Source: Actinomycetes bacterium (lineage in GTDB: Bacteria; Actinomycetota; CALGFH01). From it: a DNA stretch of 64,000 nt. The position numbers were made by a program, and so were the translations under genes. Under the pieces are notes generated by a model, which worked only from the letters and a program-made list of their open reading frames with translations, was not told the DNA's origin and did no database searches. Each line of letters opens with the position of its first letter. Position 1 is the first letter of the stretch. Below, piece after piece: positions 55,358-59,941 of the stretch. Location of the stretch: contig DASYSE010000102.1 in assembly GCA_036003705.1 (NCBI GenBank), forward strand, positions 4,965 to 68,964, read 5' to 3'.

Positions 55358-55488
55358 AGGTGAACCTCCGGTGGGTCGTCCAGGCGGAAGGGCATCGTAG
55401 CGGTGGCCACCGACCCTGCGGCGGCACCGTCCACAGATTCGCGCAAGCACTCGAACACGAGTTCGATGCACGTTAGATTCCTCGCGAG

Positions 55489-55576
55489 TGGTGCCCGAGG
55501 CGGGACTCGAACCCGCACGCCCTTTCGGGCAATCGCTTTTGAGGCGATCGCGGTTGCCGTAATTACGCCACTCGGG
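55489..55576 (-). tRNA. tRNA-Leu (anticodon CAA), type II with a long variable arm, CCA encoded
   Basis: Reverse complement: GCCCGAG-UG-GCG...CGC, anticodon stem AUCGC/GCGAU with loop CU-CAA-AA, a long variable arm, T-arm GGGUUCGAGUCCC, and acceptor CUCGGGC-A-CCA. 88 nt. Confidence 0.85.
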
Positions 55577-55598
55577 CTCGCCAGAGGAGGGTAGCGGA

Positions 55599-56348
55599 AT
55601 GCGGCCAGAGTGGGAAGTGACCCTGGTCCTGAGGCTTGTCGGGGCAGGCCTGAACGACTGCGTGATCGCGCGGCAGACCGGTATTCCTCGGGGTACGGTC
55701 CGCCAGTGGCGGATCGGCCGGGTGCCGAACTTCCGGCGTCAGTCCGGCACATGCGCCATATGCTCAGGCGACCCTCGAGCGCTCCCCCTGCCCGCTTACA
55801 CCTACCTCCTCGGCCTCTATCTCGGTGACGGGTGCCTCACGGCGTGTCCGCGGGACGTGTACAAGCTGCGGATCGCCTGCGCAGAGCGATATCCGGAACT
55901 CGTTCGGTACTGCGAGCTTGCGATGGCCGAGGTCCTTCCCAACAAGACCAACAAGGTCGGCCGGACCAGGAAGACGAACGAGCGCTGCTGGGAGGTCTAC
56001 TCCTTCTCCAAGCACTGGCCGTGTCTGTTCCCGCAGCATGGGCCCGGCAGGAAGCACGAGCGGAAGATCGAGCTGACCATGTGGCAGCAGGAACTGGTCG
56101 ACGCCGACCCGCGCCCGCTGGTGCGGGGGCTGCTGCACTCCGACGGCTGCCGGGTGCTGAACTGGGTGAACGGGACGCCGTACCCCAGATACCACTTCAG
56201 CAACGTGTCGGCGGACATCCGGGGGATCTTCGGGCGGGCCTGCGACCAGCTCGGGATCGAGTGGCGGCCGAACAATCCGTGGAGCCTCTCGGTGGCCAGG
56301 CGGGGAAGCGTCGCCCTGCTCGACGAGTTCGTGGGGCCAAAGCGGTGA
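55599..56348 (+). CDS. Hypothetical protein with an N-terminal HTH and two LAGLIDADG-like motifs (homing-endonuclease-like or DNA-binding). Atypical composition
   Basis: VIARQTGIPRGTVRQW (HTH), YLLGLYLGDGC and LVRGLLHSDGC (LAGLIDADG-like). GAGGAGGG RBS. Noticeably lower GC, with A/T-ending codons (TAT, ATT, GGT, CCT, GTT) that are rare elsewhere in the window. Confidence 0.5.
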   Translation: MRPEWEVTLVLRLVGAGLNDCVIARQTGIPRGTVRQWRIGRVPNFRRQSGTCAICSGDPRALPLPAYTYLLGLYLGDGCLTACPRDVYKLRIACAERYPELVRYCELAMAEVLPNKTNKVGRTRKTNERCWEVYSFSKHWPCLFPQHGPGRKHERKIELTMWQQELVDADPRPLVRGLLHSDGCRVLNWVNGTPYPRYHFSNVSADIRGIFGRACDQLGIEWRPNNPWSLSVARRGSVALLDEFVGPKR

Positions 56349-56385
56349 GGCCCGAGGATCGGCACGGGGTTGGCCGGGGTCGGCG

Positions 56386-57435: not shown

Positions 57436-57688
57436 GTTGCGGCCATGATTCCCGAACCTCCCGCCATCATGCTCGGCCACCGATCCGCCAGGCCACCCGC
57501 CGTAGTTTCGTGCGCCGTGTTGCGGTACAGTCCAGCCGTTGCGACCTGGCCCGAAGCTGCGGTGGGACGTCCGTCTGATGGTGGCTTGGGTCGCGGACGT
57601 TGGCTTTGCATCGGTCGACAGTCCCCGGGCGGTCGATGTCGTGAGGACCTCCGGGGCTAGCGACAGCAACGGGAAGGGAGGCAGTACC

Positions 57689-58909
57689 TTGAAGGCAGGC
57701 CACAGGCTCCTTCGTCTGGTCGCCGTGCTCGGGATCCTGGTCCTCCTGGCTGCGGGCTGCAGCCGGGAGAAGGAGTCGCCCTCCGCCGGCGGCGGCGGGA
57801 GCAAGACCGTGAAGATCGGCTTCGTGGGGCCGCTCACGGGGTCGCTGGCATCGCTCGGCCTCGGCATGAAGAACTCGATCGACCTGGCCGTCAAGCAGGC
57901 CAACGAGGCGAAGAAGATCGAGGGCTGGACGATCGTGTTTGATCCTCAGGACGACGCCGGAAAGCCCGAGACCGGCGCCAACGCCGCCAACAAGCTGGCC
58001 TCCGACCCCCAGATGGCCGGGGTGATCGGGACCCTGCAGTCCTCGATCTCCCAGCAGGTCGCTCCGGTGCTCTCGCGGGCCAACATCGCCCAGATCTCAC
58101 CCGCCAACACCAATGACACCCTGACCAGGGGCACCGACTTCGCGACCAGCCCGAAGCGGGTCTGGCCCACCTACTTCCGCCTGGCGACGCTCGACTCGCT
58201 CCAGGGCCCGTTCGCCGCGGACTACGCCTACAACCAGGCGGGCTTCAAGTCGGTGGCGACCGTCCACGACAAGCTGACCTACGGCCAGGGGCTGGTGTCG
58301 ACCTTCACCGGGCAGTGGAAGAAGGACGGCGGCACGGTCACCTCGGCCAACACCATCGCCGAGGGCGACCGCGACTTCGGCGCCCTGGTGACCAAGATCG
58401 TCAACGAGAAGCCGGACTTCGTGTACTACGGCGGCCAGTTCCCCGAGGCCGCCCCGCTGTCGGCCCAGCTCAAGGACCGCGGCTTCAAGGGTCCGGTGAT
58501 GGGCGGCGACGGCATGCAGGCTGACGACTTCATCAAGGGCGGCGGCTCCGACGGCGACCTCGGCACCCAGGTCGGCGCGCCGGTGGCCAAGCTGCCCGAA
58601 GCCGCCACCTTCACCAGCGCCTACGACGGCGGCGGGTACAAGGAGGAGTCGGGACCGTACGGGGCGCTCACCTACGACTCCGCCAACGTGCTGATCAACG
58701 CGCTGGCCACCGCGCTGCCCGGAAAGGACAGCGTCGAGGCGGCCAGACCGGATATCGTGAAGGCGGTGCAGGACACGAAGGACTTCAAGGGCATCACCGG
58801 AACCCATGGGTTCGATGAGTTCGGGGACACCTCGAACAAGGTCCTGACCGTCTACAAGGTTGAAGGCAAGAAGTGGAAGGATGCGTTCACGGGCCAGTTC
58901 GAGGGCTGA
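57689..58909 (+). CDS. livK: Branched-chain amino acid ABC transporter substrate-binding lipoprotein (LivK/LivJ family)
   Basis: TTG start after GGGAAGGGAGG RBS. Lipobox LLAAGCS. Periplasmic-binding-protein type I fold motifs (KIGFVGPLTGSLASLG, AGVIGTLQSSIS). Confidence 0.8.
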   Translation: MKAGHRLLRLVAVLGILVLLAAGCSREKESPSAGGGGSKTVKIGFVGPLTGSLASLGLGMKNSIDLAVKQANEAKKIEGWTIVFDPQDDAGKPETGANAANKLASDPQMAGVIGTLQSSISQQVAPVLSRANIAQISPANTNDTLTRGTDFATSPKRVWPTYFRLATLDSLQGPFAADYAYNQAGFKSVATVHDKLTYGQGLVSTFTGQWKKDGGTVTSANTIAEGDRDFGALVTKIVNEKPDFVYYGGQFPEAAPLSAQLKDRGFKGPVMGGDGMQADDFIKGGGSDGDLGTQVGAPVAKLPEAATFTSAYDGGGYKEESGPYGALTYDSANVLINALATALPGKDSVEAARPDIVKAVQDTKDFKGITGTHGFDEFGDTSNKVLTVYKVEGKKWKDAFTGQFEG

Positions 58910-58936
58910 CCGCGGTCGCTCCTAGCAGCATCGTAG

Positions 58937-58990
58937 CCGGGTGAGGGGGTTTGGCAGGCGGTCAGCGGCCGGCGTCGGCCCCCTCACCGG
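58937..58990 (+). promoter_or_regulatory. Long GC-rich stem-loop in the livK-livH intergenic region (candidate intercistronic processing or stabiliser/attenuator element)
   Basis: CCGGGUGAGGGGG ... CCCCCUCACCGG forms a 12-bp stem with a 29-nt loop. Confidence 0.5.
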
Positions 58991-59038
58991 ACTCGTGGCA
59001 CAAGGCTCAGGACCATTGGCGCGAACCGTGGAGTCCAA

Positions 59039-59941
59039 GTGGACGAACTCATCCAGCAGCTCGCCAACGGGATCACCAAGGGCTCGTACTACGCCCTGAT
59101 CGCCCTCGGCTACACGATGGTCTACGGCATCATCCAGCTCATCAACTTCGCCCATGGCGAGGTCTTCATGCTGGGTGCCTTCATCGGGCTGTGGACCTTC
59201 AACTTCGGGGCGTCGGCCTTCGGCTGGGGCTCGGGCTCCCTGGTCGCCCTGTTCCTCGTCCTGCTCGCCGCCATCCTGCTGACGCCGCTGGTCGGGCTCG
59301 GACTCGAGCGGTTCGCCTACCGGCCGCTGCGCAACGCGCCTCGGCTGGCGCCGCTGATCACCGCCCTCGGGGCGAGCTTCGCCCTCCAGCAGCTGGTGGC
59401 CGTCTTCTATACGAGAGGCTTCCCCGCCTATCCCAAGCTGTTCCCCGACGGCTCCATCATGATCGCCGGCGCCCAGATCAAGTACCTCTGGATCTTCATG
59501 GTCGGCCTGGCGCTGCTGCTCATGCTCGGGCTCGCCGCCTTCATCCGCACGACCCGGATGGGCAAGGCGATGCGGGCGACGGCCGAGGACCGCGACACCG
59601 CCCGCCTCATGGGCATCAACGTCGACATGACGATCGCGCTGACCTTCATCATCGGGTCGGCGCTGGCCGGCGTCGGCGGGGTGCTCGCCGGCCTGTACCT
59701 GGGCCAGGTCAACTTCTTCATGGGCTTCATCGCCGGCCTGAAGGCGTTCACCGCCGCGGTGCTCGGCGGTATCGGCAACATCGCCGGCGCCGTGCTCGGG
59801 GCGTTCCTGCTCGGCATCCTCGAGACGTTCGGCGCCCGGTACCTCGGGGGACAGTGGCAGAACGTGTTCGCCTTCGCGATCCTGATCCTCGTCCTGGTGT
59901 TCCGCCCGACCGGGCTGCTGGGTGAGAAGGTCGGTGCCTGA
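59039..59941 (+). CDS. livH: Branched-chain amino acid ABC transporter permease LivH
   Basis: LANGITKGSYYALIALGYTMVYGIIQLINFAHGEVFMLGAF is the typical LivH start, with 8-9 TM segments. Confidence 0.85.
   Translation: MDELIQQLANGITKGSYYALIALGYTMVYGIIQLINFAHGEVFMLGAFIGLWTFNFGASAFGWGSGSLVALFLVLLAAILLTPLVGLGLERFAYRPLRNAPRLAPLITALGASFALQQLVAVFYTRGFPAYPKLFPDGSIMIAGAQIKYLWIFMVGLALLLMLGLAAFIRTTRMGKAMRATAEDRDTARLMGINVDMTIALTFIIGSALAGVGGVLAGLYLGQVNFFMGFIAGLKAFTAAVLGGIGNIAGAVLGAFLLGILETFGARYLGGQWQNVFAFAILILVLVFRPTGLLGEKVGA

Follow-up and report, generated by a model that had tools for sequence, protein, structure and literature searches.

A free-standing HTH-LAGLIDADG gene beside tRNA-Leu(CAA) represents a large actinobacterial family of putative SOS-inducible homing endonucleases

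Single-chain LAGLIDADG homing endonucleases are known from archaeal introns (I-DmoI and I-Tsp061I) and from inteins (PI-SceI and the TliVMA intein endonuclease), and free-standing ones are rare in bacterial chromosomes. Here we describe an open reading frame (ORF) of 249 aa, with an N-terminal helix-turn-helix (HTH) and two LAGLIDADG motifs, that faces a tRNA-Leu(CAA) gene in a 64,000-nt stretch of DNA from Actinomycetes bacterium (GenBank assembly GCA_036003705.1, contig DASYSE010000102.1, positions 4,965 to 68,964 of the forward strand). This whole stretch is called the window below, and positions are given in its numbering. It is one of a very large family of actinobacterial genes found at tRNA-Leu gene borders, and in our view it probably encodes a free-standing, SOS-inducible, single-chain LAGLIDADG homing endonuclease that targets these borders, a reading drawn from sequence comparisons. 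Compared with the intron and intein enzymes named above, the family gene is free-standing in the bacterial chromosome, adds an N-terminal HTH, a CxxC linker, tRNA-Leu adjacency and a LexA box, and shows marginal sequence similarity (E 0.4-1.4 for the family profile against the PDB).

Several other described systems share single traits with the family. Yeast HO, a LAGLIDADG protein with a zinc-finger domain, and phage T4 SegB, which resides in a tRNA gene cluster, both act beside their own genes. Like the predicted nuclease described here, they are encoded by stand-alone genes with an added DNA-binding module and are inherited with flanking markers, and SegB also shares the location among tRNA genes; unlike the family, HO is eukaryotic and domesticated, SegB is a phage GIY-YIG enzyme, and neither is bound to one tRNA identity over thousands of lineages or controlled by LexA. 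Among elements that target tRNA genes, tyrosine-integrase islands use the 3' ends, whereas the Ty3 and Dictyostelium TRE retroelements use positions upstream. These elements likewise take a conserved, essential tRNA gene as a landing mark and leave it undestroyed, but the family consists of a single putative nuclease gene of ~0.85 kb at either tRNA end, without integrase, reverse transcriptase, attachment repeats or terminal repeats. Integron integrases are controlled by LexA (PMC3108266), and thus offer a mobile-DNA enzyme that is silenced by LexA and released on SOS induction (DNA damage, incoming single-stranded DNA), as is predicted here, though they are tyrosine recombinases rather than LAGLIDADG nucleases and also differ in targets and host phyla. 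WhiA (DUF199), an actinobacterial sporulation and cell-division transcription factor, has a C-terminal HTH, has lost the catalytic acidic residues and is kept throughout Gram-positive bacteria (PMC3781837 and general background), whereas the family has an N-terminal HTH, both aspartates invariant, and a gene that is dispensable and often decayed. Membership in WhiA/DUF199 was rejected on the HTH position, the retained acidic residues and the lack of any WhiA/DUF199 match in Pfam or NCBIfam. The single parts are already known, namely homing endonucleases of the LAGLIDADG type, selfish DNA under LexA control and tRNA genes used as landmarks. A free-standing HTH-LAGLIDADG family at tRNA-Leu borders with SOS boxes was not found described in open-access full text, a body of literature that leaves most subscription journals outside, and no description of a free-standing bacterial LAGLIDADG endonuclease tied to tRNA genes or to LexA was found there either.

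The gene pair and the parts of the encoded protein are as follows.

55489-55577, minus strand: tRNA-Leu(CAA) gene (ARAGORN; Rfam RF00005, 53.2 bits)
55599-56348, plus strand: HTH-LAGLIDADG endonuclease-like ORF, 249 aa, intact, ATG start (ratio of nonsynonymous to synonymous divergence, dN/dS, 0.07-0.45 against relatives)
55608-55712, plus strand: three-helix HTH, residues 4-38, transposase/resolvase-like (AlphaFold2, HTH_23)
55788-56027, plus strand: predicted first LAGLIDADG domain, residues 64-143, alpha-beta-beta-alpha-beta-beta-alpha (AlphaFold2), in the variable half of the protein
55803-55832, plus strand: motif 1, YLLGLYLGDG, residues 69-78 (codon of D77 at 55827-55829)
56112-56333, plus strand: predicted second LAGLIDADG domain, residues 172-245 (AlphaFold2), in the near-invariant half
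56118-56147, plus strand: motif 2, LVRGLLHSDG, residues 174-183 (codon of D182 at 56142-56144)

The tRNA-Leu(CAA) gene is of normal length and intron-free, and the ORF is a separate gene outside any intron or intein, with its start codon facing the tRNA 5' end across a spacer of 21 nt (55578-55598). An earlier note on this DNA, made from the sequence alone, had described a 249-aa ORF with an N-terminal HTH and two LAGLIDADG motifs, which the ORF call, the AlphaFold2 model and the alignments bear out; it had also correctly placed the ORF start beside the 5' end of tRNA-Leu(CAA), at a distance of 22 bp that is corrected here to 21 nt. The Pfam search suggested there gave a divided answer, as the window protein itself has no LAGLIDADG match in Pfam, even at E 10 (nor any match in NCBIfam), and 28 of 42 diverse relatives match LAGLIDADG_3 (PF14528; best E 1.6e-7). 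The HTH is recognized by Pfam HTH_23 on residues 9-38 (E 3e-4; 20.9 bits, under the gathering score of 24.6) and in 38 of the same 42 relatives. A PDB sequence search with the window protein returned chance matches only, and the family profile returned the marginal LAGLIDADG matches mentioned above. With sequence models near-silent, the fold was therefore established by structure prediction.

The best AlphaFold2 model, built from an alignment of 23 relatives, reached a predicted local distance difference test score (pLDDT) of 81 and a predicted template modelling score of 0.71 (four other models, 56-65). It comprises the HTH (helices at residues 4-15, 20-27 and 31-38), a low-confidence linker with a conserved CxxC, and two alpha-beta-beta-alpha-beta-beta-alpha domains, in which the motifs LLGLYLGDG and VRGLLHSDG terminate the two long helices. 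As modelled, this is a two-domain, single-chain LAGLIDADG fold of the DNA-binding beta-saddle type, and the top Foldseek match is the bI3 maturase, an RNA-binding LAGLIDADG protein. The motifs are far beyond chance because G76, D77, G78, G177, D182 and G183 are invariant in the 42 relatives, which are 38-55% identical to the window protein; D77 and D182 are also present in nearly all of 150 cluster representatives and invariant in alignments A1 and A3, and residues 136-249 are almost unchanged across alignment A1. The modelled fold and the residues at the catalytic positions are those of an active single-chain LAGLIDADG endonuclease, and such activity is predicted; enzymes of this superfamily bind the metal through the acidic residue that closes each LAGLIDADG helix and cut DNA site-specifically, with 4-nt 3' overhangs. 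The CxxC of the linker between the HTH and the first domain (residues 52-55; window 55750-55766) is conserved in alignments A1 and A3, and together with the further conserved C105, C130, C142, H153, H180, C184 and C215 suggests a possible metal site.

The family comprises at least 3,550 clusters at 50% identity (exhaustive search, E <= 1e-3), 778 of them with E <= 1e-30, and a word-indexed search returned at least 8,000 clusters at 90% identity. All source names encountered were "hypothetical protein" or "Homeodomain-like domain", and the named genome records with a family gene are Actinomycetota, Acidimicrobiales among them. The locus set numbers 89, made up of the window, 80 metagenome loci, 6 genome loci and 2 retrieved by exact look-up; their proteins are 45-83% identical to the window protein and their GC content is 60-76%. 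A tRNA-Leu gene adjoins the family gene in 88 of these 89 loci, with gaps of 0-185 nt that are mostly below 40 nt: ARAGORN placed a tRNA-Leu within 185 nt of the ORF in 87, and L076 adds a tRNA-Leu(TAG) cut by the contig end. The sole locus without one, L005, has a copy truncated by a DDE transposase. The partner is tRNA-Leu(CAA) in 69 loci, tRNA-Leu(CAG) in 12 and tRNA-Leu(TAG) in 6 (7 with L076). Four arrangements were distinguished.

Type A, 36 loci: tRNA upstream of the ORF, divergent; gap 21-27 nt in the window's clade and 51-120 nt in TAG and CAG members
Type B, 34 loci: tRNA upstream, same strand; gap 2-20 nt
Type C, 15 loci: tRNA downstream, same strand; gap 19-47 nt
Type D, 2 loci: tRNA downstream, convergent; gap 0-2 nt

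Contact occurs with either tRNA end and in either orientation, which suggests a relationship at the DNA level rather than one of co-expression. In a neighbour-joining tree (a simple distance tree without support values), the proteins cluster by isoacceptor and largely by arrangement. One contig, L060, holds two paralogues, each beside a different tRNA-Leu: a CAA-type gene comes after tRNA-Leu(CAA), and tRNA-Leu(TAG), directly followed by tRNA-Trp, has a TAG-type gene divergent from it (L060:18-282 and L060:1703-2581). Another, L080 (1007-2554), has tandem family genes after one tRNA-Leu(CAA), the second of which is frameshifted near its end.

A second feature that recurs in the family is an SOS box, TCGAAC-N4-GTTCGA, the operator that LexA uses in Gram-positive bacteria, Actinobacteria included. 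The regulatory elements of the window are listed here.

55451-55466, palindromic, no strand assigned: perfect LexA/SOS box TCGAACACGAGTTCGA (TCGAAC-N4-GTTCGA), past the 3' end of the tRNA gene and so on the side away from the ORF
55474-55479, plus strand: -10-like hexamer TAGATT (TANNNT), 7 nt past the SOS box towards the tRNA and ORF; inferred promoter
55586-55593, read on both strands: conserved spacer core GGAGGGTA, containing a Shine-Dalgarno GGAGG on the plus strand and TACCCT on the minus strand

The box is the sole exact CGAAC-N4-GTTCG in the 64-kb window (0.06 expected). Validated LexA boxes of Streptomyces venezuelae begin with TCGAAC-N4, with which the window box agrees (PMC9380542). 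We surveyed the region upstream of the ORF for boxes with at most 2 mismatches (background 9.5e-5 per position) and found one in 11 of 12 CAG-clade and 3 of 6 TAG-clade members, in a few other CAA loci, and in 26 of the 28 loci that form the window's clade (type-A CAA), where its position is constant. Explanations of the palindrome as a terminator hairpin or a T-arm-like repeat beside the tRNA were rejected on its sequence and family-wide placement, which are those of a LexA box. The order in the window's clade is box, 6-8 nt, usually a TAG(G/A)TT-type hexamer (present in most of the 28 loci), ~10 nt, tRNA 3' end, the tRNA itself, then 21-27 nt with GGAGG and the start codon. A generic sigma-70 consensus scan returned no promoter at the box and hexamer region, so that the promoter assignment is drawn solely from the conservation of the TANNNT hexamer. 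A role of the box in serving the peptidase gene on the far side of the tRNA is disfavoured: L007/L014 and L089 keep the box with a convergent far-side gene, so the box there could serve the ORF direction only. On this layout, transcription of the ORF would come from a promoter that LexA represses on the other side of the tRNA and would start near the tRNA 3' end, and the leader of its mRNA would therefore be antisense to tRNA-Leu(CAA). LexA control remains putative throughout, being judged from the sequence of the box and the conservation of its position.

The spacer between tRNA and ORF may carry a promoter as well. TACCCT of GGAGGGTA is -10-like and lies 11 nt upstream of the tRNA 5' end, and in 7 aligned loci GGAGGGTA is invariant and its GC-GAA flanks nearly so; the core recurs throughout the clade. 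TACCCT may thus be the -10 element of the tRNA, which would make the two transcription units convergent. SOS boxes recur in several clades with differing promoter layouts. Some members of the TAG clade, the CAG clade and type C have the box 15-60 nt before the start, sometimes directly after a TATAAT-like hexamer, whereas most CAG-clade loci have the box ahead of the tRNA and the ATG 7-20 nt past the tRNA 3' end, which suggests a tRNA-mRNA co-transcript there. In type-B loci L038, L043, L046, L070, L062, L053 and L071 (e.g., L038:2369-2460), the ATG follows the tRNA-Leu 3' end by 2-8 nt, too close for a ribosome-binding site to fit in between; if tRNA and mRNA are co-transcribed there, processing at the tRNA 3' end would yield an essentially leaderless mRNA.

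The gene is dispensable and has decayed repeatedly. Homologues of the adjacent prolyl oligopeptidase (68-85% identity) were used to retrieve contigs independently of the ORF, and six independent lineages were found to retain the peptidase-tRNA-Leu(CAA) neighbourhood. The ORF is intact in one of them (L089), fragmented by deletions and frameshifts in three (L090, L094 and L097/98/99), and lost except for its first 12-57 codons in two (L093 and L096). The fragmentation of L097/98/99 is identical in three independent assemblies and is therefore not an assembly error. What survives in the decayed loci is the tRNA-proximal part, which fits a tRNA promoter inferred at that place. At a second site, L051 carries an insert of ~845 nt (TTGACA, SOS box and ORF) directly against the 5' end of tRNA-Leu(TAG), and L037, with the same tRNA-Trp/tRNA-Leu(TAG)/membrane-protein context, has only a 92-nt spacer; the two are an occupied and an unoccupied site, a contrast that fits gain or loss alike. 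Presence/absence polymorphism at a defined tRNA-Leu border in collinear context is therefore seen both at L051/L037 and at the CAA loci, which range from intact to deleted.

Disrupted copies also occur elsewhere. The copies in L003, L025 and L029 are frameshifted or truncated, and in L005 (723-2063) the gene for a DDE_5 (IS701-like) transposase abuts a family copy truncated at residue 70, in the first LAGLIDADG motif. Isolated extra fragments of the C-terminal domain lie near full or truncated copies (L054:127-354; L027:1230-1385). SOS-box-like palindromes stand by the tRNA-Leu(CAA) 3' end of loci with a lost or fragmented gene (L093:2883-2898, L096:2890-2905, L090:1419-1434 and L097:2891-2906), and the peptidase gene begins ~100 nt past the palindrome in L093, L096 and L097; the persisting palindrome is perhaps a relic, or else it may serve some separate function.

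Sequence divergence at the locus points to different histories for the ORF and its surroundings. In genome pairs where the synonymous divergence (dS) of the adjacent prolyl oligopeptidase gene is 0.19-0.27, that of the ORF is 0.4-1.6, i.e., 2-6 times higher, with values near or above 1 being saturated. The excess is uneven along the gene: the HTH and N-terminal domain (residues 1-135) have dS of 0.9-1.6, with 0.9-1.5 for the first LAGLIDADG domain, and the C-terminal domain (residues 136-249) 0.40-0.64 in those pairs and 0.38-0.84 overall, with dN/dS of 0.07-0.22. Nucleotide identity to close relatives drops from ~90% in the flank to 54-68% over the 5' half of the tRNA and the first 400 nt of the ORF and then recovers. 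Over all eleven comparisons, dN/dS was 0.07-0.45. By these estimates, intact copies are under purifying selection and their history is discordant with that of the flank. Repeated decay, purifying selection and discordant history together form the pattern expected of a homing cycle of invasion, fixation, decay and re-invasion.

On the favoured reading, the enzyme would act on genomes without the family gene, where it would recognize and cut a site that extends from the end of a tRNA-Leu gene into the sequence beside it; recombinational repair from an occupied allele would then copy the gene into the cut site. Because the insertion would split the target site, the carrier would be protected and the tRNA spared. 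The near-invariant C-terminal domain would read the conserved tRNA side of the target, and the fast-evolving N-terminal domain and HTH the variable flank. Owing to the acceptor stem, the two ends of a tRNA gene look alike when approached from outside, which could explain insertion at either end. LexA would keep expression off until DNA damage or incoming single-stranded DNA releases it, at a time when RecA is abundant. In the window, the SOS promoter would lie beyond the tRNA, giving a leader antisense to tRNA-Leu(CAA) and two convergent transcription units, and in other clades, where the gene begins 2-20 nt past the tRNA 3' end, it would probably be co-transcribed with the tRNA. Where homing ceases, the gene would decay.

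More speculatively, and with distinctly less confidence than in the homing endonuclease itself, we raise the idea of a so far unrecognized class of bacterial "gene drives", in which SOS-triggered, free-standing HTH-LAGLIDADG endonucleases in thousands of soil Actinomycetota lineages would use tRNA-Leu borders as universal landing pads, read their targets with split domains and use the tRNA as an expression platform, with an antisense-tRNA leader and convergent promoters in one layout and, in another, a tRNA-mRNA co-transcript from which 3' processing would free a leaderless mRNA. If the homing reading is true, bacterial homing could be studied conveniently in a protein that is very abundant in soil Actinomycetota and so far called "hypothetical", for instance to ask what lets a selfish nuclease remain on a conserved gene that its host needs, what ties it to SOS signals and why the two halves of one enzyme evolve at unequal rates; thousands of natural meganuclease variants with a common half-site would also become available for the study and engineering of DNA specificity. 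In the window's clade, moreover, the mobile gene appears to share its start with the promoter of tRNA-Leu(CAA), and a damage-induced antisense transcript through tRNA-Leu(CAA) may exist too. For annotation, the family merits a model and a name.

Several observations weigh against a homing endonuclease. All peptidase-linked CAA loci of the window's clade carry a remnant and none is a pristine empty site, and these remnants demonstrate loss, not gain. A comparison of flanks between occupied and unoccupied sites at tRNA-Leu(TAG) yielded no conserved sequence that could serve as a target half-site. Many type-B and type-C CAA loci are without a recognizable SOS box. The 80 metagenome loci are best-scoring matches and thus skewed towards intact copies. 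It is unusual for a gene that is purely selfish to be under purifying selection and to have a C-terminal half that hardly varies, and the low dS of that half, which on the favoured reading goes with target reading, could instead be due to gene conversion or to constraint on the nucleotide sequence. Finally, subfamilies that track isoacceptor and arrangement point to old, mostly vertical associations, as for a domesticated gene.

This last point leads to the rival that survives best, although we consider it unlikely: that the protein descends from a homing endonuclease but has been domesticated, and now serves the host in an accessory role, under LexA regulation, by binding or nicking DNA at the tRNA-Leu locus. 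Its possible roles include control of tRNA-Leu transcription during the SOS response or the seeding of recombination or repair there, and its inheritance would be mostly vertical, with loss where it is unneeded. WhiA is a precedent for such domestication, and the low dN/dS (0.07-0.45), the nearly invariant C-terminal domain, the long residence suggested by isoacceptor- and arrangement-specific subfamilies, and the SOS wiring in several clades with different promoter layouts would all suit a host function. A domesticated protein is harder to reconcile with the strict retention of both catalytic aspartates, the repeated fragmentation and deletion in close relatives, the synonymous divergence far in excess of the flanking gene's, and the tandem and paralogous copies; contact within 0-3 nt of either tRNA end, convergent cases included, would also be useless for co-regulation.

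We regard as improbable an output at the RNA level, in which an SOS-induced antisense transcript lowers or sequesters the UUG-decoding tRNA-Leu(CAA), or the protein itself binds or cuts tRNA-Leu, in the way that LAGLIDADG maturases bind RNA; the two genes would then adjoin because of this partnership. The placement of the SOS box beyond the tRNA in 26 of the 28 window-clade loci, usually with a -10-like hexamer, would produce a leader that contains the full antisense tRNA, and the bI3 maturase found as top Foldseek match binds RNA. However, a trans-acting RNA partner needs no contact between its gene and the tRNA gene, other clades have a sense tRNA upstream or a tRNA downstream of the ORF and hence no antisense leader, and the aspartates typical of DNA cleavage are kept; to our knowledge, there is no LAGLIDADG RNase.

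Least credible of all, despite tRNA genes being classical integration sites, is that the gene is a remnant or component of a larger mobile element with a tRNA-Leu attachment site (island or prophage), or of a transposon with a transposase-like HTH protein, since the inserted unit is just ~0.85 kb with one gene, its neighbours are ordinary housekeeping genes in conserved order, and integrase and tRNA 3' repeat are missing. An integrative island was rejected on these last two grounds: no integrase gene adjoins the ORF, and no copy of the tRNA 3' end (25 nt, up to 3 mismatches allowed) occurs elsewhere in the 64-kb window, in agreement with the earlier note, which had argued against a classical integration at the tRNA 3' end. 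As for a transposon, a 31-nt inverted repeat (71%) flanks the ORF in the window, but it is not conserved in 27 related loci, and none was found in L051. Phage and plasmid collections searched by tblastn contained no family homologue, PADLOC had no match, and PHROGs had weak endonuclease and HTH matches only; nothing in these sequence searches points to an origin from a phage or a defence system.

The composition of the ORF deviates from that of the window in a genuine yet modest way. Its GC content is 0.669 against 0.736 for the window, and at third codon positions (GC3) the value is 0.87, compared with a median of 0.946 among 50 plausible window genes. The composition described in the earlier note is thus right in part: GC is lower, but 87% of the codons end in G or C, and the statement that the ORF is unlike all its neighbours was too strong, as the region at 57.5-59.9 kb is equally low in GC (0.65-0.69). 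The horizontal origin proposed there gains little from such a modest GC deviation, and stronger support comes from the ORF dS of 0.4-1.6 against 0.19-0.27 for the peptidase gene. The note had further regarded universal conservation of the ORF at this locus as speaking against its view, and related loci in fact carry fragmented or deleted copies. It contained neither the LexA box nor the linkage to tRNA-Leu across the family, nor the way in which the locus is laid out for transcription.

The window neighbours of the gene pair are ordinary (TrpA, prolyl oligopeptidase, a DUF6923 repeat protein and a solute-binding protein). Similarity to L001, L002 and L004 stops within 13 nt past the ORF stop codon (window 56349-56361), and the gene to the right of the ORF varies among relatives, being the DUF6923 repeat protein gene in the window and other genes elsewhere. 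At 57500-59900, ABC transporter genes (solute-binding protein, permease) have a GC content of 0.63-0.69, as low as that of the ORF; their GC3 is 0.92-0.96, and the low GC there is therefore an effect of amino-acid composition. In L039-type loci, the ~730-nt spacer from tRNA-Leu(TAG) to tRNA-Leu(CAA) was considered as a dead family copy and rejected, since it encodes a conserved small membrane protein. This unannotated protein of ~180 aa (MIVxVAVGEVTPGYELWHPNREK...) is found between the two tRNA-Leu genes in several lineages (L039:3236-3781, L052:1731-2267, L037:~420-960 and L051:~2000-2500).

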